Origin: Patescibacteria group bacterium
GTDB lineage: Bacteria; Patescibacteriota; Patescibacteriia; Magasanikbacterales; GWA2-37-8
Length of the DNA: 64,000 bases
Direction: 5' to 3'
Assembly: GCA_041649475.1 (NCBI GenBank)
Contig: JBAZNA010000001.1
Span: forward strand, 814,594-878,593
A program made the position numbers and the translations under genes. Under the pieces are notes generated by a model that did no database searches, was not told where the DNA came from, and was given only the letters and a program-made list of their open reading frames with translations. The first letter of the stretch is position 1, and each line of letters starts with the position of its first letter. Shown piece by piece: positions 6,381 to 29,363 of the stretch.

Positions 6381-6388
6381 ATAATATA

Positions 6389-7069: not shown

Positions 7070-7070
7070 A

Positions 7071-7499: not shown

Positions 7500-7510
7500 A
7501 GGTCTTTACA

Positions 7511-8500: not shown

Positions 8501-8525
8501 ATTTTTTATCCGCTCTCGCGGCGCT

Positions 8526-9419: not shown

Positions 9420-9430
9420 ATATTGTTGTT

Positions 9431-12400: not shown

Positions 12401-12604
12401 AGCCGTTGTCCATATATCTGCAGCAGCGGTGGCAAGTCCGGTTGCGCCAAACCACATGATTAAAATCAAACTCGCACAGATAATAAAACCAACCAAACCG
12501 ATTCGCTTTCGCTTTGGTGTTAAAAACTGCCAAAATGTTTTTATTTTAACCGCAATAACGGCAAGCATGCTTAAATTATACCACATTTGGCTACTTCCGC
12601 GCAA
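9431..12604 (-). CDS. VirB6/TrbL-like polytopic membrane protein with long charged coiled-coil C-terminal extension
   Basis: N-terminal ~330 aa contain 6-7 predicted TM helices, as in VirB6/TrbL. The remaining ~700 aa are K/E/R/Q/A-rich heptad-like sequence. Confidence 0.6.
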   Translation of the reverse strand: MRGSSQMWYNLSMLAVIAVKIKTFWQFLTPKRKRIGLVGFIICASLILIMWFGATGLATAAADIWTTAANLIGTILLTIAGWFIQISIFLLKFVITLGGYNGYIRSPAVNIGWIMVRDITNMFFVIVLLIIAFATILGIEDYSWKKLLSKLIFAAVLVNFSRQIAGIIIDFAQVIMITFINGVAATAGGNLINMFNVNNILNLARQAKPNEITPGNVFLASLGGLVFSAMMMVTMGVFAIMLLARMVMLWVLIVLSPLAFVLNVLPKTKGYADRWWKEFGNNVVSGPLIAFFIWLAFVTLGSGDIQSDITSSANNPLPAGDTWAAVDDAGVGQKSGVGGGMTWVALANFAIAIGMLMAGAKMAQELGVYGGSMLSSAVEKTAKIASGLTAARYVGRKGMEAGKKAGKFALMKAPLVGGEAWQARGLRIKSRVSQAWNKGYVEPRIVAAGRRIDTAFGKNEQGEFTEKSRWKRYGARLGLMFAPQRFKNELAKDEETAAKYAIEQQEHRISTSKTPTGQRKLQEEADLEKLKRTGQDIKRRKLQTKYEEQDEDNRAIAAAVAAGKGAGKSEKQVLEELEASGKFDARQTSDYQRLNNADKSAIEAENIEQMLKATQEEDRARIKQKLMAGEGGERMLRAAAAKAETKQMEDKLNAERELKELEEIKKVLTSDQGKVVQADITDRRAQIEQLNTDMNEIKERNVARARDAVLRSNNRFSEANNLENVLSKQAKQRIDMQSVGTDFPRSIIRTEGLYNKQDEALKELAAAESRGDQRAVVAAKLKHSQIQKSLAEMQIGNWEQHGAIGLGNMDNISKLVDPELLKNISVDPSDAGSVRKVQAAIFSSLIGEKVAASPDGLEAAVKQFGAIHGERSQALLEQLRLSLDKAAGQGVFSVAGLLQDTLQADGSITTGLTDAGSAGGKEHIQRRRTAARSSAKITSISAGLEGAVDKNEDRKAIVESDESIKIVADLLAPLTSTRLDQVDEYVKTDLGDILQYSDVKKLKQLQTSVDQSSKDRGAVANLIKSALERVEKTIKKEQKEMVKEWIKDLEKNNSKPK

Positions 12605-13280
12605 TAATATATAGATAGTGTCCCCAGAAAGGAAAAATCCTGTTTAAAATGCCATCAAAAACACCAGCAATCGGCATATCCGCGTAAGGCGGTTTGGCAA
12701 AAAACTTGACTGAAGAGAAGCCATTTCGCCTTAACCAGTGTTTAAATTTAAATGGCGAATATTTTTTGTGCGTGCCATAAGGCCAGCGTTTTTTTATGCG
12801 CAGATACCATTCCTGCATAACACCGAATGAAAGCAGATTCGGCTGAACAATAATTAACAAACCGTCAGGTTTGAGCACCCGGCGCGCCTCGGATATTGCT
12901 TTTTCAATTTCATCAAAATATGTGAGCACGCCCCAGCTTAACACCACATCAAATGTCTGGTCGCTAAAAGGCAAAGCCCGCGCGTCCGCAACCTGGTAAG
13001 TATTCATATTAGTTGGTTCAATTGCCTTTGCCCGTTCAATTGCCCCGCTGGAAATGTCTATGCCACAACCGGTTGTCTGAAAATTTTGTTGTAAATATCT
13101 TAGCGCCGCTCCGTCGCCACAGCCCGCATCCAACACTTTTTTGCCCAAAAAATCAATGCCAAAATTCACCAGATCAGAAATTTTTTCTTCTGTTTTAAAC
13201 ACCCGCCGCGGGTAAAGAGAATACTGATTATTTTTTAACCAGATGGCATCCCACCGGTCAGAGATAGAATTTTTTGGCAT
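12591..13280 (-). CDS. class I SAM-dependent methyltransferase
   Basis: Motif I LDAGCGDGAA and motif post-I GIDIS, Rossmann MTase fold. Overlaps the downstream VirB6-like gene by 14 nt. Confidence 0.8.
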   Translation of the reverse strand: MPKNSISDRWDAIWLKNNQYSLYPRRVFKTEEKISDLVNFGIDFLGKKVLDAGCGDGAALRYLQQNFQTTGCGIDISSGAIERAKAIEPTNMNTYQVADARALPFSDQTFDVVLSWGVLTYFDEIEKAISEARRVLKPDGLLIIVQPNLLSFGVMQEWYLRIKKRWPYGTHKKYSPFKFKHWLRRNGFSSVKFFAKPPYADMPIAGVFDGILNRIFPFWGHYLYIIARK

Positions 13281-13372: not shown

Positions 13373-13422
13373 ATCTGGTTCCCAACCTGGTGTTGGGTAC
13401 GAAAAAGGAAAAGGAGAGGCAC

Positions 13423-15375
13423 ATGACCAAGATCGGCTTCTGTTTCGTGGCGTTTCTCGCGTTCATCCTGTGCGCCTGTGGTGGTAACTCCGGAACCGGT
13501 GATGGCGGCACGGACAACCACGACAGCGCCGTCAGCGACGGCACCCTGCCCAACGACGCCAGGGATACGGCCCCTTCGGAGTGCACGAGCAACGCGCAGT
13601 GCGACGATGGCATTGACTGCACGGACGACACCTGTTCGTCCTCGGGCTGGTGCACCAACACGCTGGTGCCGGCGCGGTGTCCGACAGGTACGTGGTGTAA
13701 TCCCACCAAAGGTTGCGAGGCCGGAAAGGCCTGCGCCAAGGACGAGGATTGCGACAGCACCGATGCCTGCGTCGTGAACAACGGCTGTGATCCTGCCTCG
13801 CGCGTCTGCATGTGGTCAGTGCTTGACGGCGATGGCGATGGACAGCCCCCGCTTGTGTGCGGCGGAACCGACTGTGATGACAGCGACTCCGACGTCTACG
13901 CCGGAGCTCCCATGCGTTGCAACGGCAAAGATAACAACTGCGATGGGATCGTGGATACCGGAACCGCCACGGACGAATGGTGCAACGAGACCTACGGACC
14001 GGGTCACGCCTGCCAGTCAGGGCACTGCGTCTGTACGACCGGGACACAGTGCGGGTACACGTGTGCGGACTTGCTCACCGACAAGAACCACTGTGGCACA
14101 TGTTTCAACCCATGTCCGCTCAATGAAGTGTGTGTACAGGGTCAGTGTGAGTGCCCGAGCAGTGGCCAGACATTCTGTGCTGTTGATGGCTGTGTTGACC
14201 TCACGAGCGACAAATACAACTGTGGCGAGTGTGAACACGGCTGCTGGGCAGACCAGACATGCGTAGCAAGTCAGTGCGCGTGTTCAGGCAACCTGACGCA
14301 ATGCGGTTCGTGTGTGGACACACAAACCGACAACGACAACTGCGGTTCGTGCGGTCACGCCTGCAGCTCGCCTGCCAGCTGTGTGTCGGGTCAGTGCCAG
14401 TGTCCGACCAGTGGCCAGAGCTATTGCGATGGCGCCGGCTGTGTGGATCTTCAGACCGACCACGACAACTGCGGCACATGCGGGCACGCGTGCCGTGCAA
14501 GCGATACATGCTGGAGCGGCAGCTGCCCGGCTTACTGGAAAAACGTCGTGAGTAACACGGCGCTGAAGCTCAACGCAGTATGGGGAGCCGCACCCAATGA
14601 TGTCTGGACTGTTGGAAACTACACCACTGGCTCCCTGGGAGGCGCCATCCACTGGAACGGTAGCTCGTGGGCGCCTATGGGTGGCGCGACATCGAAACTC
14701 TACGGAATCTGGGGAACCACGCTTAATTTCTGGGTCGTTGGAGAAACCAGCGGGTACCTCGAGGTCTGGAATGACGTCTCCGGCACTTGGGAGGGTATAC
14801 CCAACGGGTGCACGACAGCTTCCCTCTATGGTATCTGGGGAACTGCGATTGATGATACCTGGTTCGTTGGAGCCGCCGGAACGACTGTCTATTTCAACGG
14901 CAGTACGTTCTCATGCGTCCCCAGCGGTTCAACGAATGTCCTCCATGGAGTAGGAGGCACCGCCAACAATGACGTCTGGACAGTAGGAGACGGCGGTACC
15001 ATCCTCCATTGGAATGGAAGCACGTGGTCCAGCGTGACCTCCAATACGACGAACGCCCTCTATGGAGTGTGGGGCAACACCACCAGTGATGTCTGGGTGG
15101 TGGGCGACTACGGTACCACTCTTCACTGGAATGGAAGTGTGTGGTCAGCCGTCGTCAGCTACACAGGATCAAAACTCAACGGCGTGTGGGGCAGTAGTGC
15201 CAACGATGTCTGGGCTGTGGGAGATGTCGGGGTCATCCTCCACTGGAACGGGAGTAATTGGTCCACTGTTGCCACAGGGACAACGGCACATTTCTCTGCC
15301 GTGTGGGGCAACAGCGCTACTGACATCTGGGTTGTGGGAGAAGCGGGAACCACTCTCCACTACTACACGTACTGA
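13423..15375 (+). CDS. secreted Cys-rich lipoprotein with putative metal-binding Cys/Asp motif, CGxCGHxC repeats and eight C-terminal ~40-aa propeller-like repeats; very GC-rich
   Basis: Start ATG at 13423 after SD AAGGAGAGG. Signal peptide plus Cys lipobox region (FLAFILCACGG). DGDGDGQPPLVCGGTDCDDSDSDVYAGAPMRCNGKDNNCDG matches the MopE-type putative metal-binding motif. The C-terminal repeats follow WGxxxxDVWxVGxxGTxLHWNGSxWS, eight copies. GC3 is far above the genome background. Confidence 0.75.
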   Translation: MTKIGFCFVAFLAFILCACGGNSGTGDGGTDNHDSAVSDGTLPNDARDTAPSECTSNAQCDDGIDCTDDTCSSSGWCTNTLVPARCPTGTWCNPTKGCEAGKACAKDEDCDSTDACVVNNGCDPASRVCMWSVLDGDGDGQPPLVCGGTDCDDSDSDVYAGAPMRCNGKDNNCDGIVDTGTATDEWCNETYGPGHACQSGHCVCTTGTQCGYTCADLLTDKNHCGTCFNPCPLNEVCVQGQCECPSSGQTFCAVDGCVDLTSDKYNCGECEHGCWADQTCVASQCACSGNLTQCGSCVDTQTDNDNCGSCGHACSSPASCVSGQCQCPTSGQSYCDGAGCVDLQTDHDNCGTCGHACRASDTCWSGSCPAYWKNVVSNTALKLNAVWGAAPNDVWTVGNYTTGSLGGAIHWNGSSWAPMGGATSKLYGIWGTTLNFWVVGETSGYLEVWNDVSGTWEGIPNGCTTASLYGIWGTAIDDTWFVGAAGTTVYFNGSTFSCVPSGSTNVLHGVGGTANNDVWTVGDGGTILHWNGSTWSSVTSNTTNALYGVWGNTTSDVWVVGDYGTTLHWNGSVWSAVVSYTGSKLNGVWGSSANDVWAVGDVGVILHWNGSNWSTVATGTTAHFSAVWGNSATDIWVVGEAGTTLHYYTY

Positions 15376-15427
15376 CACTAGCACTGCTTCGCTCCTTCCT
15401 ACCTTTTCGCTCCTTTTCACCCCTTCG

Positions 15428-15476
15428 GCCCGGCCCTATCTGACTTCAAGGTCAGTGGGGTACGGGCTTTTTTATT
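15428..15476 (+). terminator. rho-independent terminator
   Basis: Long near-perfect hairpin gcccggccctatctgac-ttcaag-gtcagtggggtacgggc followed by TTTTTT. Confidence 0.7.
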
Positions 15477-15508
15477 TGCTAAGCCGAGCTAAAAGTGTTA
15501 ATCTACCC

Positions 15509-15537
15509 TTGACAAGAGCTCATTTTTGTGCTATACT
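15509..15537 (+). promoter_or_regulatory. sigma70-type promoter (TTGACA-17-TATACT) for second GC-rich lipoprotein gene, with ~165-nt structured leader
   Basis: Consensus -35 at 15509-15514 and -10 at 15532-15537. The leader contains hairpin GCTAAGTT...AACTTAGC (15576-15605) and the CCCAACC...GGTTGGG hairpin (15672-15691) before SD GGAAAAGGAGA. Confidence 0.55.
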
Positions 15538-15710
15538 AATCTGTTAGTTTTTAAATAGGTTGTTCTTTACAAAGTGCTAAGTTGAGCCGAAAGGCAGAAC
15601 TTAGCCAAATGAGATGGTAAGCCCAAGTTGGGGTGATAGTTGGTTCTAAAATCTTTAGACACAGCTACAACCCCAACCTTGGGTGGTTGGGAACAGGAAA
15701 AGGAGAAACC

Positions 15711-16166
15711 ATGCGCTACAACATCAAGAAGATCCTCGCGATCATGGGCGGCTTCGCCCTTGTTCTCATCGCTGTTGCGGCCCTCACCGGCTGTGGTGGC
15801 GACGATCCCCAGTGCGGAACCGACGGTCAGCCCCCGTGCGACGTTCAGGCCGACGGCGGCACCGACGGCACGCCGACCCAGCAGGACGCTGGCGACGGCG
15901 GTGTCATCAAGACCGACGGCGGCGACGCGGGCGGAGATCCGTGCGCGGCGTTCAATCCTTACCTGAACGGATGGACCTGCAAAACCGCTCCGAATGACCC
16001 ACTGTCGTTCTCCTGCAATTTCCTGCCTACCGCCGATGGCAGTGCATGCCAGATTGGCTGCTATGGCCACTTCTCGTGCATTGCTCCTCCGGAGATGTTG
16101 ACGTCGCAGGAGTTTACCTGCGATATGATCGGCGCTCCCGGAAACATCCGCATCTGTGTCCACTAG
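15711..16166 (+). CDS. small secreted Cys/Gly/Asp-rich lipoprotein; very GC-rich
   Basis: ATG at 15711 after SD AAGGAGAAACC. Signal peptide with classic lipobox LTGC. Eleven Cys in a 151-aa mature part. GC3 very high. Confidence 0.7.
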   Translation: MRYNIKKILAIMGGFALVLIAVAALTGCGGDDPQCGTDGQPPCDVQADGGTDGTPTQQDAGDGGVIKTDGGDAGGDPCAAFNPYLNGWTCKTAPNDPLSFSCNFLPTADGSACQIGCYGHFSCIAPPEMLTSQEFTCDMIGAPGNIRICVH

Positions 16167-16246
16167 TTCCACCCCACCATCTCGCTCGCGACGATTCACA
16201 AATCGTCGCGCGCTTCCCTAAGTAGAAAATAGCTTTTCTGTTGAGG

Positions 16247-16285
16247 AAAAACAAAAATCCCGATTCAAATCGGGATTTTTGTTTT
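16247..16285. terminator. bidirectional rho-independent terminator
   Basis: AATCCCGAT-tcaa-ATCGGGATT perfect 9-bp stem flanked by A-run upstream and T-run downstream. Serves the converging lipoprotein gene (+) and giant gene (-). Confidence 0.75.
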
Positions 16286-16294
16286 AAATATTGT

Positions 16295-19200
16295 TTACTG
16301 TGGCGCGACAATGATACTACCGAAAAATGAAGTTGAAGCAGTAGTCAAATAATTGTCGCACTCATTGACATAAGGGGATGTCCACCCCTTATCATAACAC
16401 CCACCCAGCCCATTGTGATCACAACTCCCATTACACCACCCCCAATTATCCTTCACCTGCACGGACGGTTTGAAGACGCAACAGCCACCCGGGAAACGCG
16501 CGTCCGGACAAGTGTCTTGCCAGCCGGTGCCGTCTTTTAGACATTGGTAAACGTGGTCAAAACGGAAGTATGAGTTGTCACAAGATTTATCCAATATCTG
16601 ACCGAAATTGACAGACAAACTCTCCGACAGACACTGATCCAAATATTTACAATCAGCGGATTTAACACAAGTTTTGCCGGTGTCCACGTTAACTGTGGTG
16701 CGACTGTCTGTGGAAAGGGCAGAAATATATTCCGTAGCTTGGACTTTACAAGTGCCGTTTGTGCATGTACCGGCAACTACGCCGCGATGGTTGCGATAAT
16801 AGCCATTAAGGTTGGTCAAATCACCGTCACCCCAACTGACAATAACATTTCGCAAAGGCATTTGATTGGCGTCGGCAAAGGCGTAAAATTTAATGTTGGC
16901 CGGGAAGACGTATGACGGAGAAACTACATTACCGGTTGATTGATCGTTGACGGTGATACCCGGATTACCTTCACCGCATCTGCCGGCTAAACATGCTTGC
17001 GTGTTAAGAGAGCGGACTTCGGGCGGTCTCGGTGTTAATCCCGAACATGCTTGCACAGAACTTCCGCTTAAGGTAACGTTCGGACAAATGTTTTTATCTC
17101 CTTTTTCCGTATAATTATTGTTGACGTAATAGGTTGAATTGGGAACATAGGCCTTTGAGTTAAAACTATATTCCAAATCCGCATAAACGCTCGCAAAAAT
17201 CTTGGCCGCGGCCTTTTGGCCTTGATCTAAAACAAAGTTGCTGGCCGGACTCTTTTTAACTCCGCCTGAATCGGTGGTCATGGTACAACCACTGCCATTA
17301 TCATACTGACAACTGAAAGGAGCGCCGGAAACTTGTTTGGGGGCTGTTAAATTGTATTTACACGTACAATCATAAGTCGTGCCGTCGGATTTTACCGGAC
17401 AGGGATTGCACTCACTCTCCGCCTTTGGCATGGCGCCGACAGGACTAAGCACAACAGGACTAACCGGTTGGGTATTCTGACCAATACTGCCAAATGGACT
17501 ACGATTGGTTAAATAATCATAACCCACCCAATCAGCAATCTCCGGTCCGCCAAAATCTCTTATTGAATACTTTGATTTTTGCCATAAACGATCTGTCCAA
17601 GCCACAGCGCGTCCGCCACTGGGATTAATACCACTGTCAACGGACACATCCAAAATCTTTTCGCACCACTGCCTTACTCTAAATTTCACGTCATAGTTAA
17701 TATGTCCTGTATTAGCAGAATCATCACAATAAGCTAAATAATAACCCAAAAACTTACCGGTATTTTCATCAAACTTTAACCGAACAGCATGCCAATTTCC
17801 AAAATTTTTACTAGATAATGTACAGATATCATCCATACTGATGCTTCTATTCCAAATGCCTTCCACGCCCAAGCTTCTGTTGTTAGAGGTTTTTAAAGTG
17901 TCGGCTTGCAGAATATTACCGGATAATGTGGCACAAGTTAAAGTATCCCCGCTATAACCATAACAAACCGAACCATCATCCTTAAGATAAGTGCTATTTA
18001 CCGGGTCGGCCTCATTCTTGGAAGCGCTACTATACATTAATATAAATTCATTTGCTTTACCTAAATATTTGCCAACTACAGCATGCCCAAAAGGACTAAC
18101 ATTACCGCCTCTGGTATTAAGAGCAAACACTGCTTGAGGGGTTCCAACAGGCGCGGTATTATCATTAGGCCAAACTTCAAAAACAGTACCTACTCTAGGA
18201 TCCTCCGTATCATCACCGGTCACCGTGAATTGAATTTTTTCTATGTCAGCCAAACGTAAATTCTTCTCTCCATTATTTGAGTCAGCAGGCACAAAAGCTC
18301 TTATATATGCATTGTCGGATTGTTCCATCCACCATCCGGTCTCGAGAATATTCGTATCACCCAGACCATTTGCGGTGTGCATTTGTAAATTTTCAGTACT
18401 CCCCTCTATGGCGGGATTTGGCTTGGCCGTCCACTCAAAATAATAAGGAGTAGCACCTACATATCCCATCACTTTATTTCCACTCAAACAATAATACCTG
18501 CCTCCATTTGAAGGATTAACATATCCGGCTTCCCTGTCCTGGCCATTGACATCCGGAGCGCCGATTAGAGTGTCAACCGGATACCAAGTCAAACAAGTGT
18601 TGGTCTTGCCGTCCGCGTTTAATTGTCTGGAAATATCCGGCTCCAAACAATAACCGTGCCAGCCCACAAAACTGGTTTGCTTGGTGGCTTTGTTGCAAGT
18701 GCCGCCGTCCGGACAATCAGCATCGGTTTCACAAACCTTGCCGTCACGGGTGCCATTGGAACAAATTCCGCCCACCACTCCCTTAATCATCGTATTGTTC
18801 ACGCCGGCAATGCCAACCAAATTATTCGGATTGCTTAAATTCCAATACTTGGAAATTGAATCCCCATAACTGACTTTTGTATAATCACATTCGCAGGCAC
18901 CCGCCGCACTCGCATCAGTGGTCACACCTGTCCCACTTTCATTGCACAAATTCGCGCCGGCATAATTTTGCGCTGATTTCAAACTTTGCGTGTTCGGATA
19001 CGGCGCGCTTTCTTCCGGATAATTGCGGCAAGTTTGTTTGGGCGCGTTAGCGTCAAAGTCGGCGGCCGTGCCGTTTGGGTTTAAAACGCAGACCGAATTA
19101 TTGCTGGCGGTTTTTTCACACAAACCAATGCCGCCGCGGCCGCACTTATCCGTACCTGCTTTGCAAAGATAAGATTCAGTTTTGGTTGAATCCTGGCAAT

Positions 19201-22200
19201 ATTGCGCCTCGCCGCAAGAAATTTGTTTGACTAAACGCCAATCTGCATTAGTGTTGCTTCCGCCGATATTGACCTCGCTTAATTCTTCAATCGGGAAAGT
19301 GTCCAGCAAACTGTAACCGGCAAAATCCATACCTTTCCAACTGATGTCGCGGTTGCGATACAGTGTGTCGCTTAAAACCTGGCCGGAATAGGCGCTGATA
19401 CCGTCAATCCAATGCGCGCAATTAGTTATATCACTGTCAGTAAATGATTGCGGCACCTGGTCACAGCGGCCGATCCTGTCGCAGACCTCTTTATAGGCGC
19501 CTTTGCTTTGATCCCAAACCCGATGCGATGAACGGCACTGCAGCCATTCACCGCAAGTCCGGTCGCGGGTAACTTTTATAATGGTATTAGCATCATTATT
19601 GGCAGTACTGGTTGGCGGCACGGACTGTTCATTTAATGATTTACTGATCGCGTAAGTAACTTCCGTATCAAAAAGTTTGTTCGGCAGATCTGTCTCGTCA
19701 AACAAGATACAACCGTCTTTCTGGCTTACCTGTCCATTACATTCGCCGATTTTTTTAGACAAATTGTCATTGTTGATAACATAATACGATTTATCACTGT
19801 CATGATGATCCACAAATTCGGTACAGCCGTTTTGCTCAACCGGACACTCGCCGACAAAATTTTTATATTTATCCTGTACGCCGTATGACCAAATATCATA
19901 GACATTGCCGGATTTTATATAATCCGGATAACATGGCTGGGTGCCGTCGCCCACGCCTTTCCAGAACCAGCCGGCGGATTTAACGCCATTAACGGTGATA
20001 TTAGTTCTATAGGCACAAATCTTTTGGCCGATAATTTTTGGATCTTTGAAATACATCGTGCCGTTTCCATAAGAATAGGCGCTGCAACCGACCGCTTCAT
20101 TTTGACACAAGATGCTGTTATAGCTGGCCGGATCATTTTTAATAAGCACGTCATTATATGCCTGACTGCTAGTAGTTTGAGCTATTTGTCCGGCGCTTAC
20201 ACAGCCCAAATCAATGGAATTGCAAGTCGCGTCTTGATTGGCCACTAAATAAATCGGTGACTCTGGTGTGGTATCCGGAGGTATATATACAGTGGAGGTT
20301 GTGATAAAGGCCTTACTGCCGGCTTGTGTTTGGATTTCGGCAATGGTCGCTCCATTTATATTAACATAACAACCATCACGATCTTGCTGGATCTGACATT
20401 TGTATTCTTGGCTGTTAATAGTGACACTGACATTTTGTCCGGCCGCGCCAACCAACCAAACATTATACGCCTGTGCGTTCGAATTATCAGGAGTATTGAA
20501 GGTATCAAAAAGTGCTGTGCAACCAATCGCCCCTTCTCGGCACAAATAACTGAAGCCGGTTAAATAAACCGAAGCGGCGGCCGGAGTTTGATATTTTGAA
20601 CAACCCAGGGCCTCGCCGGGTAAATTATCGCTCGGCTCGCTATCGCAAACCGAATCAACGCGCAATGAATTTTTAACCAAATAAACATAATCAGAAACTT
20701 CAGTAAAATGAACATTATCAATAAAGACAGTGCCATTACCGCCCAAAGAGAACACTAAATTGGTTGACGAGACACTGCCGGAAAGTTCAACCGGTCCGAG
20801 GTGATAATACTGCCAGGTATCGCTTATTCCGACCGTACCCAAATCACTTGGTGGCGACGGTGGACTGGTTTGATTTTGTAATGAAACCTTAACGCTGTTC
20901 GCGTTGCCCTTTACCCAGAAAGTTAAATCATAACTCTTTTGCGGAGTTAAATTTAAATTTTGTTTGTAAAATGTCTGGCCGGTAGTGCCATTATAGGCCA
21001 AGGAATGTTCACCGACATGGGTTGACTCCAAAGATACGCCAAGCACTCCGCCCGCACTCGCCCAATTGATGGCGCCTGTGCTGGTTACTCCTTCAAAACT
21101 ATCAGTAAAAATTGTTTGGATATTATTTCCGGCATTGCCTTTATAGGCGTGGCAAGTATTTGCAAACGCGGAACATGATTGGCTTGAACCGGCATTGGTG
21201 TAGGTGCCGGCGGCCAAGCCCATATAAAAACACTGGCCATTTCGCAGTTCACCGTTTAAAAGACAGTTGCCGATGCTGTCAAGCTCCGGATTATCCAAGC
21301 GATATGGCGTGCACTGATCGGAAACCACGATTGTTTTTGAAAGCAATTTATAATAAACATTTCCCTGGTCATCGTTAAATTGACGGCAATCCAAACTGGC
21401 GGTACCGGCTTTATATTCTGCTTCGCTACAGGCCGTATTACTAAACGTTTTCGGACTGCCATCCGTGTCTTGTTCTAAAAGAAAGGCCTTTAATTGATAC
21501 CCGCCGGCGGTTGAGCCCTCGTAAGTGTAAAATTTCTTTTGTAAATTCGGATCCGGATTTATACACGGACGCAAATAAGAAAAATATTCAACTCTTTCCA
21601 AACCGGCCGTGGTAGTGCTTAAATTGGTAAAACCGGTACAACCCTCATCTTGAGCGCTGCACTTATTTCCGGAGGAAGGAATGATGTATGAAATTGATTG
21701 GCCGTTTGAATAATTGTTCGGCATCTCGCGGTAAGCCGCGTAGCCCTCGCAGCGCGCATCGCATTGATCGTTCCAAATAATATTACCATTATCAATCGCG
21801 GCTGGAGTGAAGCGCCCGGGAATATTATCACCGCCATAAGTTATGGGCGTATACCAATTACAATTCACTTCATCGGGCGTGCAGGCCTGGGAATAATTTT
21901 GGCAGTCAACTGTTGGCTGTAATCTAGATAAATCCGCTTGAGTTCGCGGCCAATCAATTTTTGGCGTGGCTAAATTAATATCATAACACTGGGCGTAGTA
22001 AGGAGCTTTTTTCAAGTACGCGGTAATTGACGAGCTGGCCACATTAAAGGCCGAACAGCCGGCCGAATCAGCCGAACAACTGGAAGATAAATTATGATTA
22101 AAATAAATAACAGAATTTTGATCACCGCTCACTAAATCATTTCGCGAGTAACCGGTCCAGACCCCGGAGGTGACGGTGGTATAATCTTTTTTCAAACTAT

Positions 22201-23998
22201 AAGCCGTACAGCCCGCATTATTGGCGTCGCAGTAACCGGTATCCAAAGTCCGATATAAATAACTCACGGTATTGCCGGTGCTGTCTTGAAATGTTTTACA
22301 GGTGCGATATTGGGCATCGCAGGTTTGGGCATCAATTTTCCAAATATTTTTTTCTCTGGTGCAATAACCGCTGATAGCACAGCTGCCATTGCTGTCATTC
22401 GCCACACAAGTGCTTAAATCGACGCACTCCTGCTGACGGTTTGGGCCGCTTGAGTCCGCCAAACTGGGCCCGTAGCCCACAACATTACACCTGGCGGCCG
22501 GGGCTTCCAAAACCCAATTCGGATCTATTAAGTGGCAAAATGGTTTATTGATCGGATCATTCTGCACCCCAACTACATTACCGCGGCTGTCTTTGATAAA
22601 AATACAATCATTAAACCCATCCACAACCTGTTTGAGCGTCCATGGCTTATCCGGATTACTGTAAAGGGTCGCAATTTCAAAACCAAGGGGCAAGACCCTG
22701 GCTTTTCGCAGTTTGGCAATGTTGGCGTAGCAATACGCTGAATTGTAACAAGATCTATTGGTATTGTCGGACACGCGCTCCGGCGGGATAAGTTTCCAAT
22801 CGCCATGAAGCCAATTTTTTGCCAAGGCCTCGGCGATTGAAACCGGTGTACCAAAACCCTCTTCCTGTGCCGCCTGCACCAATCCGCCATCGGCTACACA
22901 GTTGTCAGGACCGGGATTATCAGGACAATTTGAAAAATTGGAGAGCACATCATACTGGCTTACCTCAATAGTCGGCGGCACCAACAGTTCGCTGAACATA
23001 TTTTGCGCGGCGGCAATTCCACCTGTGTATTCGGCATCATAGTTGGCAACCACATTACCGGTGGCCGGACAATTACTGCCCACACAGCCCAGACCAAAAG
23101 GCAACATGCCTTTGGTCATGTAATTTTTTAACATCGTGCCGGCCAAGGTCGTCAAAAATAATTTTGCCGCTCCCATCATTGAGCCCTCCAGACCGGAGCC
23201 AATGGTGGCCATGGTGCTTTGCTGGCTGGCCGCGATTTTTTTATCCGGAGTATTGCTCAAACCGACTGCCTGATTAGCGGCCGCCGGACTGGTGATACCG
23301 CCTGAAATCGGCTGGGTTGACGGTTTAAATCCCTGACCCTCTTGTCTTTGTAAAGCAGCGGCGGCACTTTCTTTAGCCACCATATTATCAATTTTTTGTG
23401 AAGCGCTCATGGCTAAGCCAATATCGCTCTGGCCAACCTGAAAAGAAGCATTAAACCTGTTTTCCAAGGCCTGACCGCTGTATTGACTCTTCCAGCTGTT
23501 GGCTGACCAATTTTTTTGAAAATCACTGAAAGTACAACTTGGATTGGTTGGTGGGGCATACTGCATTTGCAAACCAAGACGAAGGGCCAGATCCATTCTT
23601 ACGTCCGGAATTTTACAAAGATTCAAACCAAACGGTTTGCCAAGCTGTTCAATGGCCACGCCGGCCGCGTTGTTGGCTACATCTCCTAAATAGCTGCCAA
23701 AACTTTTGGTGTGGGCCAACGTGCCCTGACCCTTGCCGCCGGAAGCGACATAAACGGCCGTGTCATAAGCGATTTTTCTGACAAAATAATCAACGGCTCT
23801 AACCACGGCATTAACAATGGCGGTTTTGAATCCGGTTTGAACTTTATTTTTAATTTGTACAGCATTAAATGCGGCCAAAAGAGCCGCGTCGGCAACAGGC
23901 ATCCCCTGCGCGTGAGCCGGTATTGCTTGAAACAAAAATGGAAACAAAAATATGAACGTGATCAGTCCGATAAAAATTTTTCTAAACCTGAAAAACAT
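16295..23998 (-). CDS. giant (2567 aa) secreted Cys-rich surface protein
   Basis: Uninterrupted 7.7-kb ORF. N-terminal signal peptide MFFRFRKIFIGLITFIFLFPFLFQAIPAHAQG, then a Cys-poor ~270-aa region, then >100 Cys in N/T/G/S-rich sequence. Includes a jelly-roll/CBM-like segment (SFEGVTSTGAINWASAGG...TFWVKGNANSVKV). Confidence 0.85.
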   Translation of the reverse strand: MFFRFRKIFIGLITFIFLFPFLFQAIPAHAQGMPVADAALLAAFNAVQIKNKVQTGFKTAIVNAVVRAVDYFVRKIAYDTAVYVASGGKGQGTLAHTKSFGSYLGDVANNAAGVAIEQLGKPFGLNLCKIPDVRMDLALRLGLQMQYAPPTNPSCTFSDFQKNWSANSWKSQYSGQALENRFNASFQVGQSDIGLAMSASQKIDNMVAKESAAAALQRQEGQGFKPSTQPISGGITSPAAANQAVGLSNTPDKKIAASQQSTMATIGSGLEGSMMGAAKLFLTTLAGTMLKNYMTKGMLPFGLGCVGSNCPATGNVVANYDAEYTGGIAAAQNMFSELLVPPTIEVSQYDVLSNFSNCPDNPGPDNCVADGGLVQAAQEEGFGTPVSIAEALAKNWLHGDWKLIPPERVSDNTNRSCYNSAYCYANIAKLRKARVLPLGFEIATLYSNPDKPWTLKQVVDGFNDCIFIKDSRGNVVGVQNDPINKPFCHLIDPNWVLEAPAARCNVVGYGPSLADSSGPNRQQECVDLSTCVANDSNGSCAISGYCTREKNIWKIDAQTCDAQYRTCKTFQDSTGNTVSYLYRTLDTGYCDANNAGCTAYSLKKDYTTVTSGVWTGYSRNDLVSGDQNSVIYFNHNLSSSCSADSAGCSAFNVASSSITAYLKKAPYYAQCYDINLATPKIDWPRTQADLSRLQPTVDCQNYSQACTPDEVNCNWYTPITYGGDNIPGRFTPAAIDNGNIIWNDQCDARCEGYAAYREMPNNYSNGQSISYIIPSSGNKCSAQDEGCTGFTNLSTTTAGLERVEYFSYLRPCINPDPNLQKKFYTYEGSTAGGYQLKAFLLEQDTDGSPKTFSNTACSEAEYKAGTASLDCRQFNDDQGNVYYKLLSKTIVVSDQCTPYRLDNPELDSIGNCLLNGELRNGQCFYMGLAAGTYTNAGSSQSCSAFANTCHAYKGNAGNNIQTIFTDSFEGVTSTGAINWASAGGVLGVSLESTHVGEHSLAYNGTTGQTFYKQNLNLTPQKSYDLTFWVKGNANSVKVSLQNQTSPPSPPSDLGTVGISDTWQYYHLGPVELSGSVSSTNLVFSLGGNGTVFIDNVHFTEVSDYVYLVKNSLRVDSVCDSEPSDNLPGEALGCSKYQTPAAASVYLTGFSYLCREGAIGCTALFDTFNTPDNSNAQAYNVWLVGAAGQNVSVTINSQEYKCQIQQDRDGCYVNINGATIAEIQTQAGSKAFITTSTVYIPPDTTPESPIYLVANQDATCNSIDLGCVSAGQIAQTTSSQAYNDVLIKNDPASYNSILCQNEAVGCSAYSYGNGTMYFKDPKIIGQKICAYRTNITVNGVKSAGWFWKGVGDGTQPCYPDYIKSGNVYDIWSYGVQDKYKNFVGECPVEQNGCTEFVDHHDSDKSYYVINNDNLSKKIGECNGQVSQKDGCILFDETDLPNKLFDTEVTYAISKSLNEQSVPPTSTANNDANTIIKVTRDRTCGEWLQCRSSHRVWDQSKGAYKEVCDRIGRCDQVPQSFTDSDITNCAHWIDGISAYSGQVLSDTLYRNRDISWKGMDFAGYSLLDTFPIEELSEVNIGGSNTNADWRLVKQISCGEAQYCQDSTKTESYLCKAGTDKCGRGGIGLCEKTASNNSVCVLNPNGTAADFDANAPKQTCRNYPEESAPYPNTQSLKSAQNYAGANLCNESGTGVTTDASAAGACECDYTKVSYGDSISKYWNLSNPNNLVGIAGVNNTMIKGVVGGICSNGTRDGKVCETDADCPDGGTCNKATKQTSFVGWHGYCLEPDISRQLNADGKTNTCLTWYPVDTLIGAPDVNGQDREAGYVNPSNGGRYYCLSGNKVMGYVGATPYYFEWTAKPNPAIEGSTENLQMHTANGLGDTNILETGWWMEQSDNAYIRAFVPADSNNGEKNLRLADIEKIQFTVTGDDTEDPRVGTVFEVWPNDNTAPVGTPQAVFALNTRGGNVSPFGHAVVGKYLGKANEFILMYSSASKNEADPVNSTYLKDDGSVCYGYSGDTLTCATLSGNILQADTLKTSNNRSLGVEGIWNRSISMDDICTLSSKNFGNWHAVRLKFDENTGKFLGYYLAYCDDSANTGHINYDVKFRVRQWCEKILDVSVDSGINPSGGRAVAWTDRLWQKSKYSIRDFGGPEIADWVGYDYLTNRSPFGSIGQNTQPVSPVVLSPVGAMPKAESECNPCPVKSDGTTYDCTCKYNLTAPKQVSGAPFSCQYDNGSGCTMTTDSGGVKKSPASNFVLDQGQKAAAKIFASVYADLEYSFNSKAYVPNSTYYVNNNYTEKGDKNICPNVTLSGSSVQACSGLTPRPPEVRSLNTQACLAGRCGEGNPGITVNDQSTGNVVSPSYVFPANIKFYAFADANQMPLRNVIVSWGDGDLTNLNGYYRNHRGVVAGTCTNGTCKVQATEYISALSTDSRTTVNVDTGKTCVKSADCKYLDQCLSESLSVNFGQILDKSCDNSYFRFDHVYQCLKDGTGWQDTCPDARFPGGCCVFKPSVQVKDNWGWCNGSCDHNGLGGCYDKGWTSPYVNECDNYLTTASTSFFGSIIVAPQ

Positions 23999-24006
23999 AT
24001 TTTTGA

Positions 24007-24642
24007 TTATTGCCCGGTAATTTGACTGCTAATAGTGGACGAAGCCAAAATTTCCTGAACCATTACCATTAAATCAGCATCTGAAGTGCTGTCTAAAACC
24101 TTTTTTTCAACCCCGGCCGATAGGAGCATTTGTCTGACTTGAGCCGGGTCGGTTAAGGCCTGACTCAAAGCGTCAATGCTGGCGCTTGAGTCGGGCTCCT
24201 GCATTTGACTGATCACTTCCGCAGTAGTACTTGGCGACCCTCCGGAAAGCGGCACGGCTTCACTGCCGCCATTTACACAAATTTTGGTTTTTTCATTGCA
24301 CAAGGGGCTTGAACCTTTGGCTATCTCTACCCCGTCGGGAATGCCGTCTGAATCCGTATCAGCCAAATACGGGCTGGTTCCGTATATAAAAATTTCATCA
24401 AAATCGCTAAGCCCGTCATGGTCGGTATCGCGGTATTTAAGGGTATCAATATTGTTGACAACACCGCTGTCAATCGGCGGCACTTCTTTGTTAAGCGCGA
24501 GCGGACCATACATGGAATTTCTAATCTGCAAAGCGCCCAAACCGACCGCAAAAATAGCAAAAATCAACAGCAAGACAAATCCCATCTTCTGCGTCTTTGT
24601 TAGACCGGGGCGAGAATTTAGTTCATCTGGCATATCTACCAC
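24007..24642 (-). CDS. membrane-anchored protein with thrombospondin type-3-like Ca-binding repeats
   Basis: Single TM (FVLLLIFAIFAVGLGAL) then DTDHDGLSDFDE / DTDSDGIPDGVE Asp-rich Ca-binding loops. 8 nt upstream of the giant gene. Confidence 0.55.
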   Translation of the reverse strand: MVDMPDELNSRPGLTKTQKMGFVLLLIFAIFAVGLGALQIRNSMYGPLALNKEVPPIDSGVVNNIDTLKYRDTDHDGLSDFDEIFIYGTSPYLADTDSDGIPDGVEIAKGSSPLCNEKTKICVNGGSEAVPLSGGSPSTTAEVISQMQEPDSSASIDALSQALTDPAQVRQMLLSAGVEKKVLDSTSDADLMVMVQEILASSTISSQITGQ

Positions 24643-24688
24643 CGAACATCTTTTAATGTTGGTGATATTATATCACAGATTTAGCTAA

Positions 24689-25522
24689 TTAATAAGTGGA
24701 TAACTTGCGAGCGAGATCAATCCAATTTTGAACTGATAATTCCTGGGCTCTTACCTTGTTATTTAGCCCTAACTTAGTGAAAATTTCCTGAAGTTTTGAT
24801 CTGTTTTTCTTATTGATTAGGTGCTCGAGGTTTTTTATCAAAATTTTGCGCTTGTTGGCGAACCCGGTTTTGACGATTTTAAAGAAAAATTCGGTTTCGG
24901 TTTGGTTTTTGAGTTGGGTTGGGTTTGGCTCTATTTTTATTACAGCCGAGTCAACAGCCGGTTCGGGCCAAAAATATGCCCTGGGAACATTTGTGATAAT
25001 TTCGGGTTGGGCAAAAAACTGGACTGAAACAGATAACACCGACATGTCCCCTGGTTTGGCGCAAATGCGCTCGGCCACTTCTTTTTGGACCATTAACGTA
25101 GTGGATTGCGGTTGATTTTGTGAGGTGAGCAAGGTGCGGATAAGGTTTGAAGTGATTTGATAAGGGATGTTGGCCACGACTTTGTATGGTTCTGTTGGAA
25201 ACACCGGGGTTTTTAAAACATTACCCCAGATTATTTCTATATTGGGGTGGGTTTTTTGGATTTCTTCCCAATACGGGGTCAATTTTTTTTCAATTTCAAA
25301 AGCGATGACTTTTTTGGCTTTTTCGGAGAGCGCCAAGGTGAGCACGCCAAAACCCGGGCCGATCTCCACAATTGTGTCATCAGCTTTGATTTGGGCGGTC
25401 TCAAGCATTTTTTCAATCAGCTCCGGATTAATTAAAAAATTCTGGCCGTATTTTTTGCTGGGTGTGAGACCGTATTTTTTACAAAGCGATTTTAGATAAT
25501 TTTGATCAAACAATTTGGACAT
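24689..25522 (-). CDS. rsmA: 16S rRNA (adenine1518/1519-N6)-dimethyltransferase
   Basis: YGQNFLINPELIEKM...IVEIGPGFGVLT SAM-binding motif typical of KsgA/RsmA. Confidence 0.85.
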   Translation of the reverse strand: MSKLFDQNYLKSLCKKYGLTPSKKYGQNFLINPELIEKMLETAQIKADDTIVEIGPGFGVLTLALSEKAKKVIAFEIEKKLTPYWEEIQKTHPNIEIIWGNVLKTPVFPTEPYKVVANIPYQITSNLIRTLLTSQNQPQSTTLMVQKEVAERICAKPGDMSVLSVSVQFFAQPEIITNVPRAYFWPEPAVDSAVIKIEPNPTQLKNQTETEFFFKIVKTGFANKRKILIKNLEHLINKKNRSKLQEIFTKLGLNNKVRAQELSVQNWIDLARKLSTY

Positions 25523-26129
25523 TGCCTTGTCTTAAAATTTTTAATTCATTGCCGACAACACTGACAATGGTCGAGGGTTTATTTTTTGGCAGTTCGCCGT
25601 AATCCAAAATTATATCAGGTTGAAACGCTTGATTTGAGAAATTTTTTATAATTTCTTGAGCGCTGTAGGTACTTTCGGTTTCAGAAATGTTGGCCGATGT
25701 GGCTACCAACGGTTTACTAATCTTCTCGGATAAAAATTTTGGAACCGGATGACTGGTTACGCGCAAGGCCAAAGTTTTTTCTGTTGAAACAACACCATTG
25801 GCCAGTTGATACCCAGTCGGCTGGTCGTTTTTATATTCCCCCACTATTGTCAGTGGTCCGGGCCAATACTTGCTGGCCAGTTGTTCCAACAGATCATTCC
25901 ACTCTAAATATTTTTTTGCCATCTCAATTGTCGGCACAACCACCAGTAATGATTTTGTCTGCGGACGTTTTTTAATGGCAAAGATTTTATCAACCGCCTT
26001 TTGATTGGTCGCGTCACAACCCAAACCGTAAGATGTTTCGGTGGGAAAAACAATCGTCTGGCCGTTGGTAAGTTCAGCCGCGACCTCTGCCAAATTTTCT
26101 TTACTTAAAATTTTCATGATTTTATCCAT
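25506..26129 (-). CDS. tsaC: L-threonylcarbamoyladenylate synthase (YrdC/TsaC family)
   Basis: YrdC signature VFPTETSYGLGCDA and KIFAIKKRP. Confidence 0.8.
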   Translation of the reverse strand: MDKIMKILSKENLAEVAAELTNGQTIVFPTETSYGLGCDATNQKAVDKIFAIKKRPQTKSLLVVVPTIEMAKKYLEWNDLLEQLASKYWPGPLTIVGEYKNDQPTGYQLANGVVSTEKTLALRVTSHPVPKFLSEKISKPLVATSANISETESTYSAQEIIKNFSNQAFQPDIILDYGELPKNKPSTIVSVVGNELKILRQGNVQIV

Positions 26130-27190
26130 TTCAAATACGCCTCTGAAAGGGGTAATAAATTTCCTTCCAATACACCCTCCGGATCAGCGGATTCATAATC
26201 GGTGCGGTGATCTTTTACCATGTGATAAGGATGTAAAACATAAGATCGGATTTGATTGCCCCATTCAGCGGATTTGTATTCTCCGCGAAGTTCCTGTTTT
26301 TCTTTAGCCAATCTTTCCTGCTCTAATCTGTATAATTTAGCTTTCAAGACCTTCATGGCCATCTCTTTATTTTGCTGTTGTGATCTTTCATTCTGGCAAG
26401 ATACGCTGATATTGGTCGGCAGGTGGACAATACGCACGGCCGAATAAGTTGTATTGACGCTTTGCCCGCCGTGGCCGCCGGACATAAAGGTGTCAATGCG
26501 GATATCTTTGGGGTCAATATTGATATTTATATTTTCATCAACTTCAGGCAAAACTTCAATCAAGGCAAAAGAGGTGTGGCGCATTTTTTCCGCGTCAAAC
26601 GGAGAAATGCGCACCAGGCGATGCACCCCGTGTTCAGATTTCAAATATCCATACGCATACCTGCCCTTAACTTCAAAAGTTATGGATTTATATCCGGCTT
26701 CAGCGCCTTTTGACTCATCCAAAATTTTTGTCTGCCAGCCCTGTTTTTCGCAAAAGCGCATCACCATGCGAAGTAGCATCTCCGCCCAATCCTGTGCTTC
26801 GGTTCCTCCGCTTCCGGCGTGAATCGCGATAATGGCATTGCTTTTATCATACGGACCGCTTAACAAAACATACAATTCATATTGCTGATATTCTTTTTCT
26901 AGCGCGCTGGTTTGGGCTTCAATTTCTTTAGTCATTTCTTCGTCAGCCCCATCGATTAATTCCAAAAGGTCTTTGGCCTTTTTTTCCAAGTCCTCAAATT
27001 TTTCCACTTCCTTTTTTATATCCTGATAATCCTGGGATATGGTTTGAGCGTTTTCCGCGTTATTCCAAAAATCCGGAGCCGACATCTCTTGCGACAATTG
27101 CTCCATTTTTTGTTTGAGTTCTTTGATGTTCAAAATTTTTTCTGTTTGAACAATTTTTGTATACAACTCATTTAACCGCTCCTTTAACAT
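26114..27190 (-). CDS. prfB: peptide chain release factor 2
   Basis: GGQ motif (SGGHGGQSVNTT) and RF2-specific SPF motif (RISPFD). ORF is continuous; no +1 frameshift site. Confidence 0.85.
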   Translation of the reverse strand: MLKERLNELYTKIVQTEKILNIKELKQKMEQLSQEMSAPDFWNNAENAQTISQDYQDIKKEVEKFEDLEKKAKDLLELIDGADEEMTKEIEAQTSALEKEYQQYELYVLLSGPYDKSNAIIAIHAGSGGTEAQDWAEMLLRMVMRFCEKQGWQTKILDESKGAEAGYKSITFEVKGRYAYGYLKSEHGVHRLVRISPFDAEKMRHTSFALIEVLPEVDENININIDPKDIRIDTFMSGGHGGQSVNTTYSAVRIVHLPTNISVSCQNERSQQQNKEMAMKVLKAKLYRLEQERLAKEKQELRGEYKSAEWGNQIRSYVLHPYHMVKDHRTDYESADPEGVLEGNLLPLSEAYLKWIKS

Positions 27191-27199
27191 ACGAAGTTT

Positions 27200-28840
<1,641 letters not shown>

Positions 28841-28863
28841 TTAAGATCAAAAAAATTAAAAAT

Positions 28864-29169
28864 TTATTCAATGATTGCGACCACATCGCTTTTATCTTCG
28901 TCTTTGCCAACGTATAAAATTTTGTATTCAATTTCGTCTTTGCCTTTGCCAACCTTCACATCTTCCCCACCCCATTTTTTATATAATATTCTATCGCCGA
29001 CTTTAAAACCCAACTTGGCGACGGCGTCGCCGTTACCCAAAGCAATAATTTCGCCTTCGGCTTTTTTTTCTTTATCAACGGTTTCGGGCAAAACAATACC
29101 AGAGGCCGTAACCTCTTCCTCTTTTATTGGCTTTACCAAAACCCTGTCTCCCAATGGTTTTATGGACAT
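28864..29169 (-). CDS. groS: co-chaperonin GroES
   Basis: MSIKPLGDRVLVKPIKEEEVTASGIVLPE... Start set at the internal Met matching the GroES N-terminus. Confidence 0.9.
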   Translation of the reverse strand: MSIKPLGDRVLVKPIKEEEVTASGIVLPETVDKEKKAEGEIIALGNGDAVAKLGFKVGDRILYKKWGGEDVKVGKGKDEIEYKILYVGKDEDKSDVVAIIE

Positions 29170-29212: not shown

Positions 29213-29239
29213 TTATCACTCAAATTATGGGAGTGATAA
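29213..29239. promoter_or_regulatory. CIRCE-like HrcA operator (TTATCACTC-N9-GAGTGATAA)
   Basis: Perfect inverted repeat with a 9-nt spacer, 44 nt upstream of the groES ATG. Each half matches 8 of 9 positions of the CIRCE consensus TTAGCACTC-N9-GAGTGCTAA. Confidence 0.7.
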
Positions 29240-29249: not shown

Positions 29250-29278
29250 ATTATACAATATTTTTAAAAAATGTCAAG
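29250..29278 (-). promoter_or_regulatory. sigma70-type promoter of groES-groEL operon (TTGACA ... TGTATAAT)
   Basis: Minus-strand reading is TTGACAttttttaaaaatattgTATAATg. The -35 is consensus and the -10 is extended, lying immediately upstream of CIRCE. Confidence 0.6.
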
Positions 29279-29288: not shown

Positions 29289-29363
29289 TGGTGGACCGGC
29301 GGGGACTCGAACCCCGAACACCGCTTACCAAGGGCGGTATTTTACCAGTTAAACTACCGGCCC
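29289..29363 (-). tRNA. tRNA with encoded CCA; anticodon loop CUUGGUA (UGG/Pro most likely, GGU/Thr not excluded)
   Basis: Reverse complement GGGCCGGTAGTTTAACTGGTAAAATACCGCCCTTGGTAAGCGGTGTTCGGGGTTCGAGTCCCCGCCGGTCCACCA folds with a 7-bp acceptor (one G-U pair), D-loop with GG, T-arm CGGGG-TTCGAGT-CCCCG. The anticodon stem has a C-A mismatch or a 9-nt loop. Confidence 0.55.

Follow-up and report, generated by a model that had tools for sequence, protein, structure and literature searches.

A cysteine-rich giant protein and its TSP3-repeat membrane partner, a possible adhesin module ahead of type IV secretion genes in Magasanikbacterales

The DNA analysed here, a stretch of 64,000 nucleotides (nt) referred to below as the window, comes from a Patescibacteria group bacterium of the order Magasanikbacterales (GenBank assembly GCA_041649475.1, contig JBAZNA010000001.1, forward-strand positions 814,594 to 878,593), and carries on its minus strand a gene for a giant cysteine (Cys)-rich protein directly preceded by the gene for a small membrane protein, small211. 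Upstream of the pair lies a housekeeping block running from groES to rsmA, and downstream lies a type IV secretion system (T4SS) locus. In the open reading frame (ORF) listing of the window, the giant gene is a single uninterrupted frame of 2567 amino acids (aa). NCBI holds an identical protein, WC526_04160, from a Patescibacteria metagenome-assembled genome (963-kb contig), and dozens of homologues in the protein collection align with it end to end over 100% of its length, so that the ORF, taken as intact in a preliminary description of this DNA made from the sequence alone, is not a frameshift or assembly artefact. The features of the pair, in window positions, are as follows.

24694..24703, minus strand: upstream box TTATCCACTT, conserved at the equivalent position in at least 40 related loci
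24667..24675, minus strand: extended -10 promoter element TGATATAAT of the small211-giant operon, predicted from sequence and conservation
24007..24633 (ORF from GTG 24642), minus strand: partner gene small211, 208-211 aa (Pfam, ORF listing)
16295..23998, minus strand: giant gene WC526_04160 (ORF, ATG start, 2567 aa, Sec signal peptide, 104 Cys)
23906..23998, minus strand: putative signal peptide, aa 1-31 (MFFRFRKIF..., h-region, AHA/QG), from hydrophobicity and the family consensus PAxAQxPV
22979..23905, minus strand: N-terminal module, aa 32-340, conserved, Cys-poor, predicted helical at low confidence (alignment, AlphaFold2)
21134..22978, minus strand: Cys-rich core I, aa 341-955, conserved, in which C-x6-GC-[ST]-x-[FY] hairpins recur (alignment, model)
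20684..21133, minus strand: CBM4/9/22-like beta-jelly-roll, aa 956-1105 (Pfam, PDB profile search, Foldseek)
18449..20683, minus strand: Cys-rich core II, aa 1106-1850, conserved (alignment, model)
16949..18448, minus strand: hypervariable region, aa 1851-2350 (identity 8-26% versus about 50% in the core)
16298..16948, minus strand: C-terminal domain, aa 2351-2567, conserved, with the motifs FYAxADxNQMPIR..VDWGDG and KVQVKDNWGWCNG (alignment)
16248..16285, both strands: bidirectional intrinsic terminator with a 17-bp stem between A and T runs

Residues 1-19 form the sole hydrophobic segment of the giant protein and are followed by AHA/QG, consistent with the cleavable Sec signal that the preliminary description had proposed. 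That description had also put the number of cysteines above 100, and the translation contains 104; in the family alignment, 67 of these are invariant, compared with 5.7% invariance at other positions, conservation reaches 90% or more at 79 of them, and the Cys number is even in 18 of the 19 aligned family members. Such conservation, together with the even counts, argues for a fully disulfide-bonded extracellular protein. The N-terminus, said to be Cys-free over about 270 aa, proved to be Cys-poor rather than Cys-free, since the first 300 aa contain C128 and C155, both invariant across the family. We found neither an LPXTG motif (LP.[TSA]G) nor any other known sorting signal in the protein, the C-terminus of which reads ...FFGSIIVAPQ.

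The only recognisable domain is the jelly roll at approximately aa 956-1105, already singled out as resembling a carbohydrate-binding module (CBM). Specifically, the isolated segment aa 961-1110 scored 29.2 bits against the Pfam family CBM_4_9 (PF02018), for which the gathering threshold is 25.9, whereas the full-length protein scored 22.5 bits, under that threshold; many of the giant homologues carry the precomputed PF02018 annotation. A PDB profile search with the whole giant family matched the CBM alone (E about 4e-4), and Foldseek against the PDB matched the jelly roll to CBM22, CBM4 and CBM16 structures, for example the CBM22 entry 4xup (E=1.4e-7, template modelling score TM(target) 0.73, root mean square deviation 2.5 A). 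In the AlphaFold2 models of the giant protein, built from a 42-sequence alignment, the local confidence (predicted local distance difference test, pLDDT) was 78-89 across this segment, and the predicted structure confirms it as a beta-jelly-roll fold. The fold is the one found in the CBM4/9/16/22 modules of glycoside hydrolases, from which the segment at aa 956-1105 differs in having no attached catalytic domain and in sharing only 15-20% identity. Over residues 1-1100 the pLDDT was 58, the confident parts being aa 345-510, aa 780-950 and the CBM; aa 345-510 was modelled as an alpha/beta domain without family assignment, and Foldseek against the PDB found nothing in residues 1-1100 apart from the CBM. 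Residues 1468-2567 were modelled with a pLDDT of 80 and a predicted template modelling score of 0.78 as nearly all beta; Foldseek returned no significant structural match to them in the PDB or BFVD, the weak top matches being Fn3 or pilin-like domains of Gram-positive surface proteins. The giant protein had no NCBIfam match, and a PHROGs search was blank for eight giant segments, for small211 and for a lipoprotein encoded convergently downstream. Comparison of sub-alignments with hhalign revealed, as internal repeats, only the short Cys-hairpin motif (50-73% probability).

At least 277 homologues of the giant protein were found in the protein collection, and relatives occurred in the genomes of 376 species. 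The N-terminal module alone matched 953 clusters at 50% identity in an exhaustive representative search (a word-indexed search gave four fragments and missed the known family); it stood at the protein N-terminus in all 150 best matches listed, and the apparently full-length proteins among the matches listed were 2500-3250 aa. Named members belong mostly to Magasanikbacteria (GTDB class ABY1), with a few from Parcubacteria and Kaiserbacteria, and the family is a large, uncharacterised one within Patescibacteria. The window protein shares 30-57% identity with its relatives. Residues 50 to about 1840 are highly conserved, identity falls to 8-26% across 1851-2350 and rises again over the final 217 residues, and several relatives could be aligned only up to approximately residue 1838. 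One variant, P0106, contains NHL beta-propeller repeats at approximately aa 1047-1205 and 1778-1938, which are not present in the window protein; the former overlap the position of the window protein's CBM, suggesting that binding modules have been gained or exchanged on a conserved scaffold.

The likely start of small211 is ATG 24633, behind the Shine-Dalgarno sequence GGTGG. The short, putatively cytoplasmic N-terminus of the protein leads into a transmembrane helix (aa 17-37), beyond which lie two TSP3 repeats with the Ca-binding pattern DTDxDGLxDxxE, a Cys pair and, at the C-terminus, a helical segment; the protein scored 28 bits against PF18884 (bacterial TSP3 repeat; gathering score 25). 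For comparison we used 80 related loci from species-representative genomes, in which the window proteins were placed by tblastn. Members of the small211 family are 193-237 aa long and keep the transmembrane helix, the Cys pair and the C-terminal helix, and the pattern DTDxDGLxDxxE ... DTDSDG is present in 73 of them. In 71 of 73 loci, small211 precedes the giant gene at a distance of no more than 300 nt. From its stop to the giant start the median distance is 9.5 nt (74 loci), some loci having a 4-nt overlap; in the window it is 8 nt. Since small211 is an obligate neighbour of the giant gene, the role of partner or anchor first suggested for it remains plausible. Its DxDxDGxxDxxE Ca-binding repeats, which match PF18884, recall those of Myxococcus CglD and MtsD, to which it has weak matches; however, small211 has only two repeats in a single-pass membrane protein of about 210 aa, and its scores are far below the respective equivalog cut-offs (26 versus 800 bits and 24 versus 400 bits).

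The -35 hexamer accompanying the extended -10 element TGATATAAT is TTATTA, a weak match, which is why this promoter was overlooked by a consensus scan; the groES promoter had been held to be the only strong one in the region, a view that is not borne out, given the conserved element at 24675..24667. Among the related loci, the pattern TGnTA[TC]A[ACG]T was present within 100 nt upstream of the small211 homologue in 64 of 72 cases. It also preceded the VirB6-like gene of the T4SS locus in 21 of 30 loci and PrgI in 12%, whereas the rate upstream of groES, groEL, prfB, tsaC, rsmA, giant, TrsD and VirB4 was 0-5% and the background was 1.6% of random windows. Of 544 same-strand ORFs preceded by a gap of 35 nt or more, 112 had an extended -10, and 85 of these 112 were small211 or VirB6.

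The upstream box TTATCCACTT overlaps the last rsmA codons, begins 28 nt before the TG of the window's extended -10 and agrees with the DnaA-box consensus TTATCCACA at 8 of 9 positions. With promoters aligned on the -10, a TTATCCAC(T/A)T box was located 28-29 nt before the TG in 27 of 66 cases and at other offsets in about 14 more, and the composite of box, N17-24 and extended -10 occurred 32 times in 1.82 Mb of related loci, each time (32/32) upstream of small211. By itself, the sequence TTATCCAC shows no enrichment in the window (3 copies versus 1.8 expected), and its significance derives solely from its fixed position across loci. In one Magasanikbacteria subgroup, rsmA is followed by a terminator-like hairpin, and the box makes up its 5' arm. 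The window has a second such pair, TTATCCAC at 504..511 followed by the extended -10 TGCTATACT at 465..473, both on the minus strand, with a spacing of 38 nt rather than 28 and a downstream gene that leaves the window; this site aside, the combination was found nowhere in the window except at the small211 promoter. A palindrome, GTGATATAATATCAC, around the window's -10 was considered as an operator and dropped, as it is not conserved in relatives.

At the other end, the terminator at 16248..16285 is common to the giant gene and the convergent lipoprotein gene, and at least 43 of 54 loci have a hairpin followed by a T-run 3' of the giant stop. The spacing of about 9 nt, together with a promoter and a terminator of their own, makes small211 and giant a conserved bicistronic unit, and on these sequence signals the operon is very probably autonomous in transcription. 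Transcription signals have seldom been compared among these uncultured bacteria, and the promoter data contribute extended -10 elements, a locus-specific upstream box and possibly a leaderless virB6.

Downstream of the giant gene, beyond a spacer that ranges from 0.1 to 5 kb across loci, lies a T4SS cluster in the order VirB6/TrbL-like gene, p297, p367, PrgI/VirB3, TrsD/TraC-like gene, VirB4, p198 and ComF.

3232..12568, minus strand: T4SS cluster through p198 and ComF, monoderm-type (profile matches, relatives)
12575..12583, minus strand: extended -10 element TGGTATAAT of the VirB6-like gene (sequence)
9431..12568, minus strand: VirB6/TrbL-like gene (1045 aa with a large ectodomain; TrbL 28.1 bits, gathering score 25.9)
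8526..9419, minus strand: p297, T4SS cluster member
7511..8614, minus strand: p367, T4SS cluster member
7071..7499, minus strand: PrgI/VirB3 (PrgI 41 bits, gathering score 27)
6389..7069, minus strand: TrsD/TraC-like gene (weak TraC_F_IV match and 65-87% identity to the TraC-like genes of relatives)
4509..6380, minus strand: VirB4 (P-loop_TraG 97.6 bits)

A VirB6-like gene was found within 6 kb downstream of giant in 40 of 50 loci and, among loci with enough flanking sequence, within 10 kb and co-oriented in 37 of 44; VirB3, TrsD or VirB4 lay within 10 kb downstream in 30 of 44. The link survives rearrangement in two loci: in L073, giant follows directly after VirB6-p297, and in L077, small211-giant-VirB6 is intact with rsmA 9.5 kb away. 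The ATG of the VirB6-like gene at 12568 sits 6 nt downstream of TGGTATAAT, which suggests a leaderless virB6 mRNA, the listed TTG start at 12604 being upstream of the promoter. Directly upstream of the VirB6-like gene is a gene for a class I S-adenosylmethionine-dependent methyltransferase (229 aa, 12591..13280, minus strand), which has no tblastn homologue in any related locus and is therefore another insertion in the variable spacer.

Taken together, we favour, with a probability of about 0.55, a reading in which the giant protein is a disulfide-stabilised, ligand-binding surface protein, encoded with its membrane tether in an autonomous operon and possibly serving as an adhesin of the T4SS. 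An extracellular binding role, judged from the sequence features described above, is by itself probable and fits the huge adhesins proposed for the candidate phyla radiation (CPR) in the preliminary description; functional coupling to the T4SS is possible, though somewhat doubtful. In the proposed mechanism, the giant protein would be exported through Sec, its signal peptide would be cleaved, and the chain of about 280 kDa would adopt an extracellular fold that is large, mostly beta and free of repeats, held together by some 50 disulfides. With the lectin-like CBM and the hypervariable region near its C-terminus on display, it would bind to another surface, where a host cell's polysaccharide or envelope component is the likeliest ligand, while the co-translated small211 would hold it at the surface or aid its assembly through the Ca-binding TSP3 ectodomain. 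Standing at the head of the T4SS locus, the pair would then be the best candidate for a contact or adhesin module, a functional analogue of PrgA/B/C.

The analogy is with plasmid pCF10 of Enterococcus (mating pair formation type MPF-FATA), in which the exported surface proteins PrgA, PrgB and PrgC are likewise encoded immediately upstream, and on the same strand, of VirB6/PrgI/VirB4-like genes, the prgH-prgL channel genes following PrgA/B/C, and neither system needs a pilin. However, we found no sequence or fold homology of the giant protein to PrgB domains (Pfam, NCBIfam, PDB profile search, Foldseek); in contrast to the PrgB type, which is Cys-free, it is rich in Cys, 2-3 times larger and without LPXTG, with a promoter and a terminator of its own, and the Patescibacteria T4SS, unlike that of pCF10, is chromosomal and usually without a relaxase (PMC12102498). 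The comparison is thus one of functional analogy, not of membership. A 2025 survey of Patescibacteria T4SS detected no adhesin such as PrgB; it reported KsgA (rsmA) to be enriched near virB4 and comF in ABY1 loci, did not mention the giant protein and left neighbouring large genes unannotated (PMC12102498). In Southlakia epibionticum, the one species in which this was tested, the T4SS is essential and its role is unknown (PMC10633639, PMC11665869).

Giant surface proteins are known generally in CPR bacteria (PMC8080830). Those of episymbionts such as Vampirococcus lugosii resemble the protein described here in being exported, of very large size and equipped with binding modules, and in coming from bacteria that have small genomes and depend on a host (PMC8080830), and those of Omnitrophota are also encoded beside a multi-subunit secretion apparatus (bioRxiv 10.1101/2023.11.21.568195). 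Whereas those proteins are mosaics of PKD, integrin, Fn3, WD40 and hydrolase domains with widely varying lengths, members of the window family keep to a length of about 2500-3200 aa and have a conserved, non-repetitive core that for the most part defies annotation, invariant cysteines and a dedicated small partner. In the literature searched, we did not find this giant family, its dedicated partner, the promoter architecture or the position at the head of the T4SS. The widespread two-gene module, with its conserved promoter and terminator, invariant cysteines, lectin-like module and hypervariable region, and mostly directly ahead of T4SS genes, offers a concrete, testable candidate for the host-contact part of the T4SS in one major class.

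Several observations weigh against this interpretation. Seven loci keep rsmA-small211-giant with no T4SS match in the next 9-10 kb; the T4SS synteny is no stronger than that with rsmA, which is surely unrelated in function; and most Patescibacteria have a T4SS without the giant family. Residues 1-340 and 510-780 of the giant protein are poorly modelled, and it contains no tandem domain array, its strongly conserved core being what one would expect of a structural or machine component more than of an adhesin. In addition, the window has no intrinsic terminator between rsmA and small211. A stronger form of the proposal, in which small211 and giant would be integral extracellular T4SS parts bridging epibiont to host in ABY1/Magasanikbacteria and replacing the missing pilus or adhesin, with the DnaA-box-like element tying expression to replication or growth and the lipoprotein as a third co-evolving component, seems improbable at present.

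Alternatively, the giant protein could be a surface (S)-layer-like or sheath protein of the cell's own envelope, unrelated to the T4SS, with the CBM anchoring it to a polymer of its own wall and the Ca-binding partner aiding the lattice. The assembly of S-layers is often Ca-dependent. The strongly conserved, non-repetitive core with invariant cysteines across a class-level clade would suit such a protein, as would the presence of apparently one locus in each genome, equipped with a strong promoter and a terminator of its own in the manner typical of abundant envelope proteins, and the seven loci without nearby T4SS genes. However, neither an SLH nor any other known S-layer anchoring domain was found with Pfam and NCBIfam, the hypervariable region and the NHL modules of P0106 point to a changing external ligand, a size of 280 kDa is far above that usual for S-layer proteins, and the family is confined to one part of Patescibacteria, so we consider an S-layer role unlikely.

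Returning to the small211-giant operon, which we regard as a unit of its own, the genes upstream had led to a different proposal, namely that the pair is co-transcribed as the tail of a CIRCE (controlling inverted repeat of chaperone expression)-controlled groESL transcript, mainly from the groES promoter. The genes and signals concerned are the following.

24689..29169, minus strand: groES-groEL-prfB-tsaC-rsmA block, conserved synteny, outside the pair's unit (Pfam, NCBIfam)
29213..29239, minus strand: CIRCE-variant operator TTATCACTC-N9-GAGTGATAA (sequence)
29250..29277, minus strand: groES promoter TTGACA-16-TATAAT, perfect consensus (promoter scan)
29289..29363: tRNA-Pro, just upstream of the groES promoter

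The identities given to these genes before, including the TSP3 protein, were borne out: Pfam and NCBIfam assigned them to GroES, GroEL, RF2 (prfB), TsaC and RsmA/KsgA, and the minus-strand ORFs are groES (stop end at 28864), groEL (27200..28834), prfB (26114..27190), tsaC (25506..26129) and rsmA (24689..25522). From groES to small211 the gaps are 29, 9, -16, -17 and 46 nt; the largest gap is thus 46 nt, as had been noted, only if small211 starts at GTG 24642, and becomes 55 nt from ATG 24633. The operator is a symmetric variant of the canonical TTAGCACTC-N9-GAGTGCTAA, with the changes G4T and C6A keeping the palindrome. The gene prfB is one intact 358-aa ORF that covers the full TIGR00020 model, without the programmed +1 frameshift of many bacteria.

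Read-through from groES would accord with the single strand throughout, gaps of no more than 55 nt, the perfect-consensus promoter with its CIRCE-like operator and the conserved gene order, and the window scan found no intrinsic terminator on the minus strand between 24643 and 29169. Upstream read-through is thus possible and may add to expression. Against it stand the extended -10 that immediately precedes small211 both in the window and in 89% of relatives, and the locus-specific box at a fixed spacing from it; the interval 24650-24700, where an internal promoter might have been expected, therefore contains one, and only the separating terminator after rsmA is missing. A clear hairpin with a T-run directly after rsmA is present in about 8-10 relatives, a minority, and several relatives have extra genes between groEL, prfB, tsaC or rsmA and the small211-giant pair, indicating that the block is not a fixed transcription unit. 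The order p320-p436-groES-groEL-prfB-tsaC-rsmA-small211-giant is collinear across the clade; in 61 of 68 loci rsmA is no more than 1.3 kb from giant, and in 32 of 55 groEL is no more than 9.5 kb away. Since the order is conserved clade-wide, the adjacency is best read as inherited gene order rather than shared regulation, and the linkage to heat shock, which had seemed unusual, loses its footing: we find no evidence for a giant adhesin wired into the heat-shock regulon, a false lead that can be set aside, and transcription mainly from the groES promoter is quite improbable.

Least likely of all is that the giant protein is a secreted enzyme or polymorphic toxin acting on host envelopes through a hidden catalytic or toxic domain, with the lipoprotein providing immunity or protection. 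In its favour, giant genes that lie by secretion systems in predatory Omnitrophota have been implicated in cell-wall degradation (bioRxiv 10.1101/2023.11.21.568195), glycoside hydrolases are the usual company of CBMs, a variable region and a variable small neighbour gene are present, and the confidently modelled alpha/beta domain at aa 345-510 is unassigned. Against it, searches of Pfam, NCBIfam and PHROGs and the PDB profile search found no catalytic or toxin family, the variable region lies within the protein and not at its C-terminus, and the neighbour is encoded on the opposite strand as an exported lipoprotein, unlike cytoplasmic immunity proteins.

The spacer between giant and the T4SS cluster contains a stretch of 57% GC (13390..16200) with two plus-strand genes, for which the GC content at third codon positions (GC3) is 0.69 and 0.76, compared with about 0.45 in native genes. 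The gene nearer to giant and its promoter are as follows.

15711..16166, plus strand: lipoprotein gene WC526_04155, 151 aa, Cys-rich, GC3 0.76, convergent on giant (sequence, relatives)
15509..15537, plus strand: lipoprotein promoter TTGACA-17-TATACT with TG (promoter scan)

Syntenic counterparts of this gene were found in about 40 of 50 related loci (including L001, L003, L008-L015 and L026-L044), all lipoprotein-like, on the opposite strand and 3' of giant. They have GC contents of 0.52-0.71 and GC3 of 0.6-0.96 in genomes of 37-53% GC, with a median excess of +0.37, and 17 of these lipoproteins, the window's included, are mutually homologous with a common Cys pattern. High-GC windows make up 30-60% of the giant-VirB6 spacer versus 1-4% elsewhere in the loci. 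A plain foreign GC island, considered at first for this gene, is weakened by the synteny and homology, which suggest that the odd composition belongs to a resident gene and does not reflect one-off transfers; GC-biased recombination, selection at synonymous sites or repeated replacement from high-GC donors are possible causes. A homologue search with the window lipoprotein returned itself and one relative of 48% identity, so that no donor lineage can be named.

The second gene (13390..15375, plus strand; GC 0.59, GC3 0.69) encodes a 661-aa Cys-rich protein with an NCBIfam MXAN_6577-like match of 111 bits (cut-off 100) and Pfam Stig1 and MopE motifs. It had no counterpart among the 80 related loci; apparently it was acquired in the window alone, from a high-GC lineage (Myxococcota, for example), and came to lie between giant and the T4SS cluster.

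An Rfam scan of the window revealed three tRNAs and nothing else. The remaining genes of the window are housekeeping genes (YidC, NusA, FtsH, S1, UvrABC, GyrA, RelA/SpoT and an extracytoplasmic function sigma factor), and two tandem Peptidase_C92 genes (YaeF/YiiX-type permuted papain) are located beside a PilB-like T2SSE ATPase gene at 34216..37178 on the minus strand.

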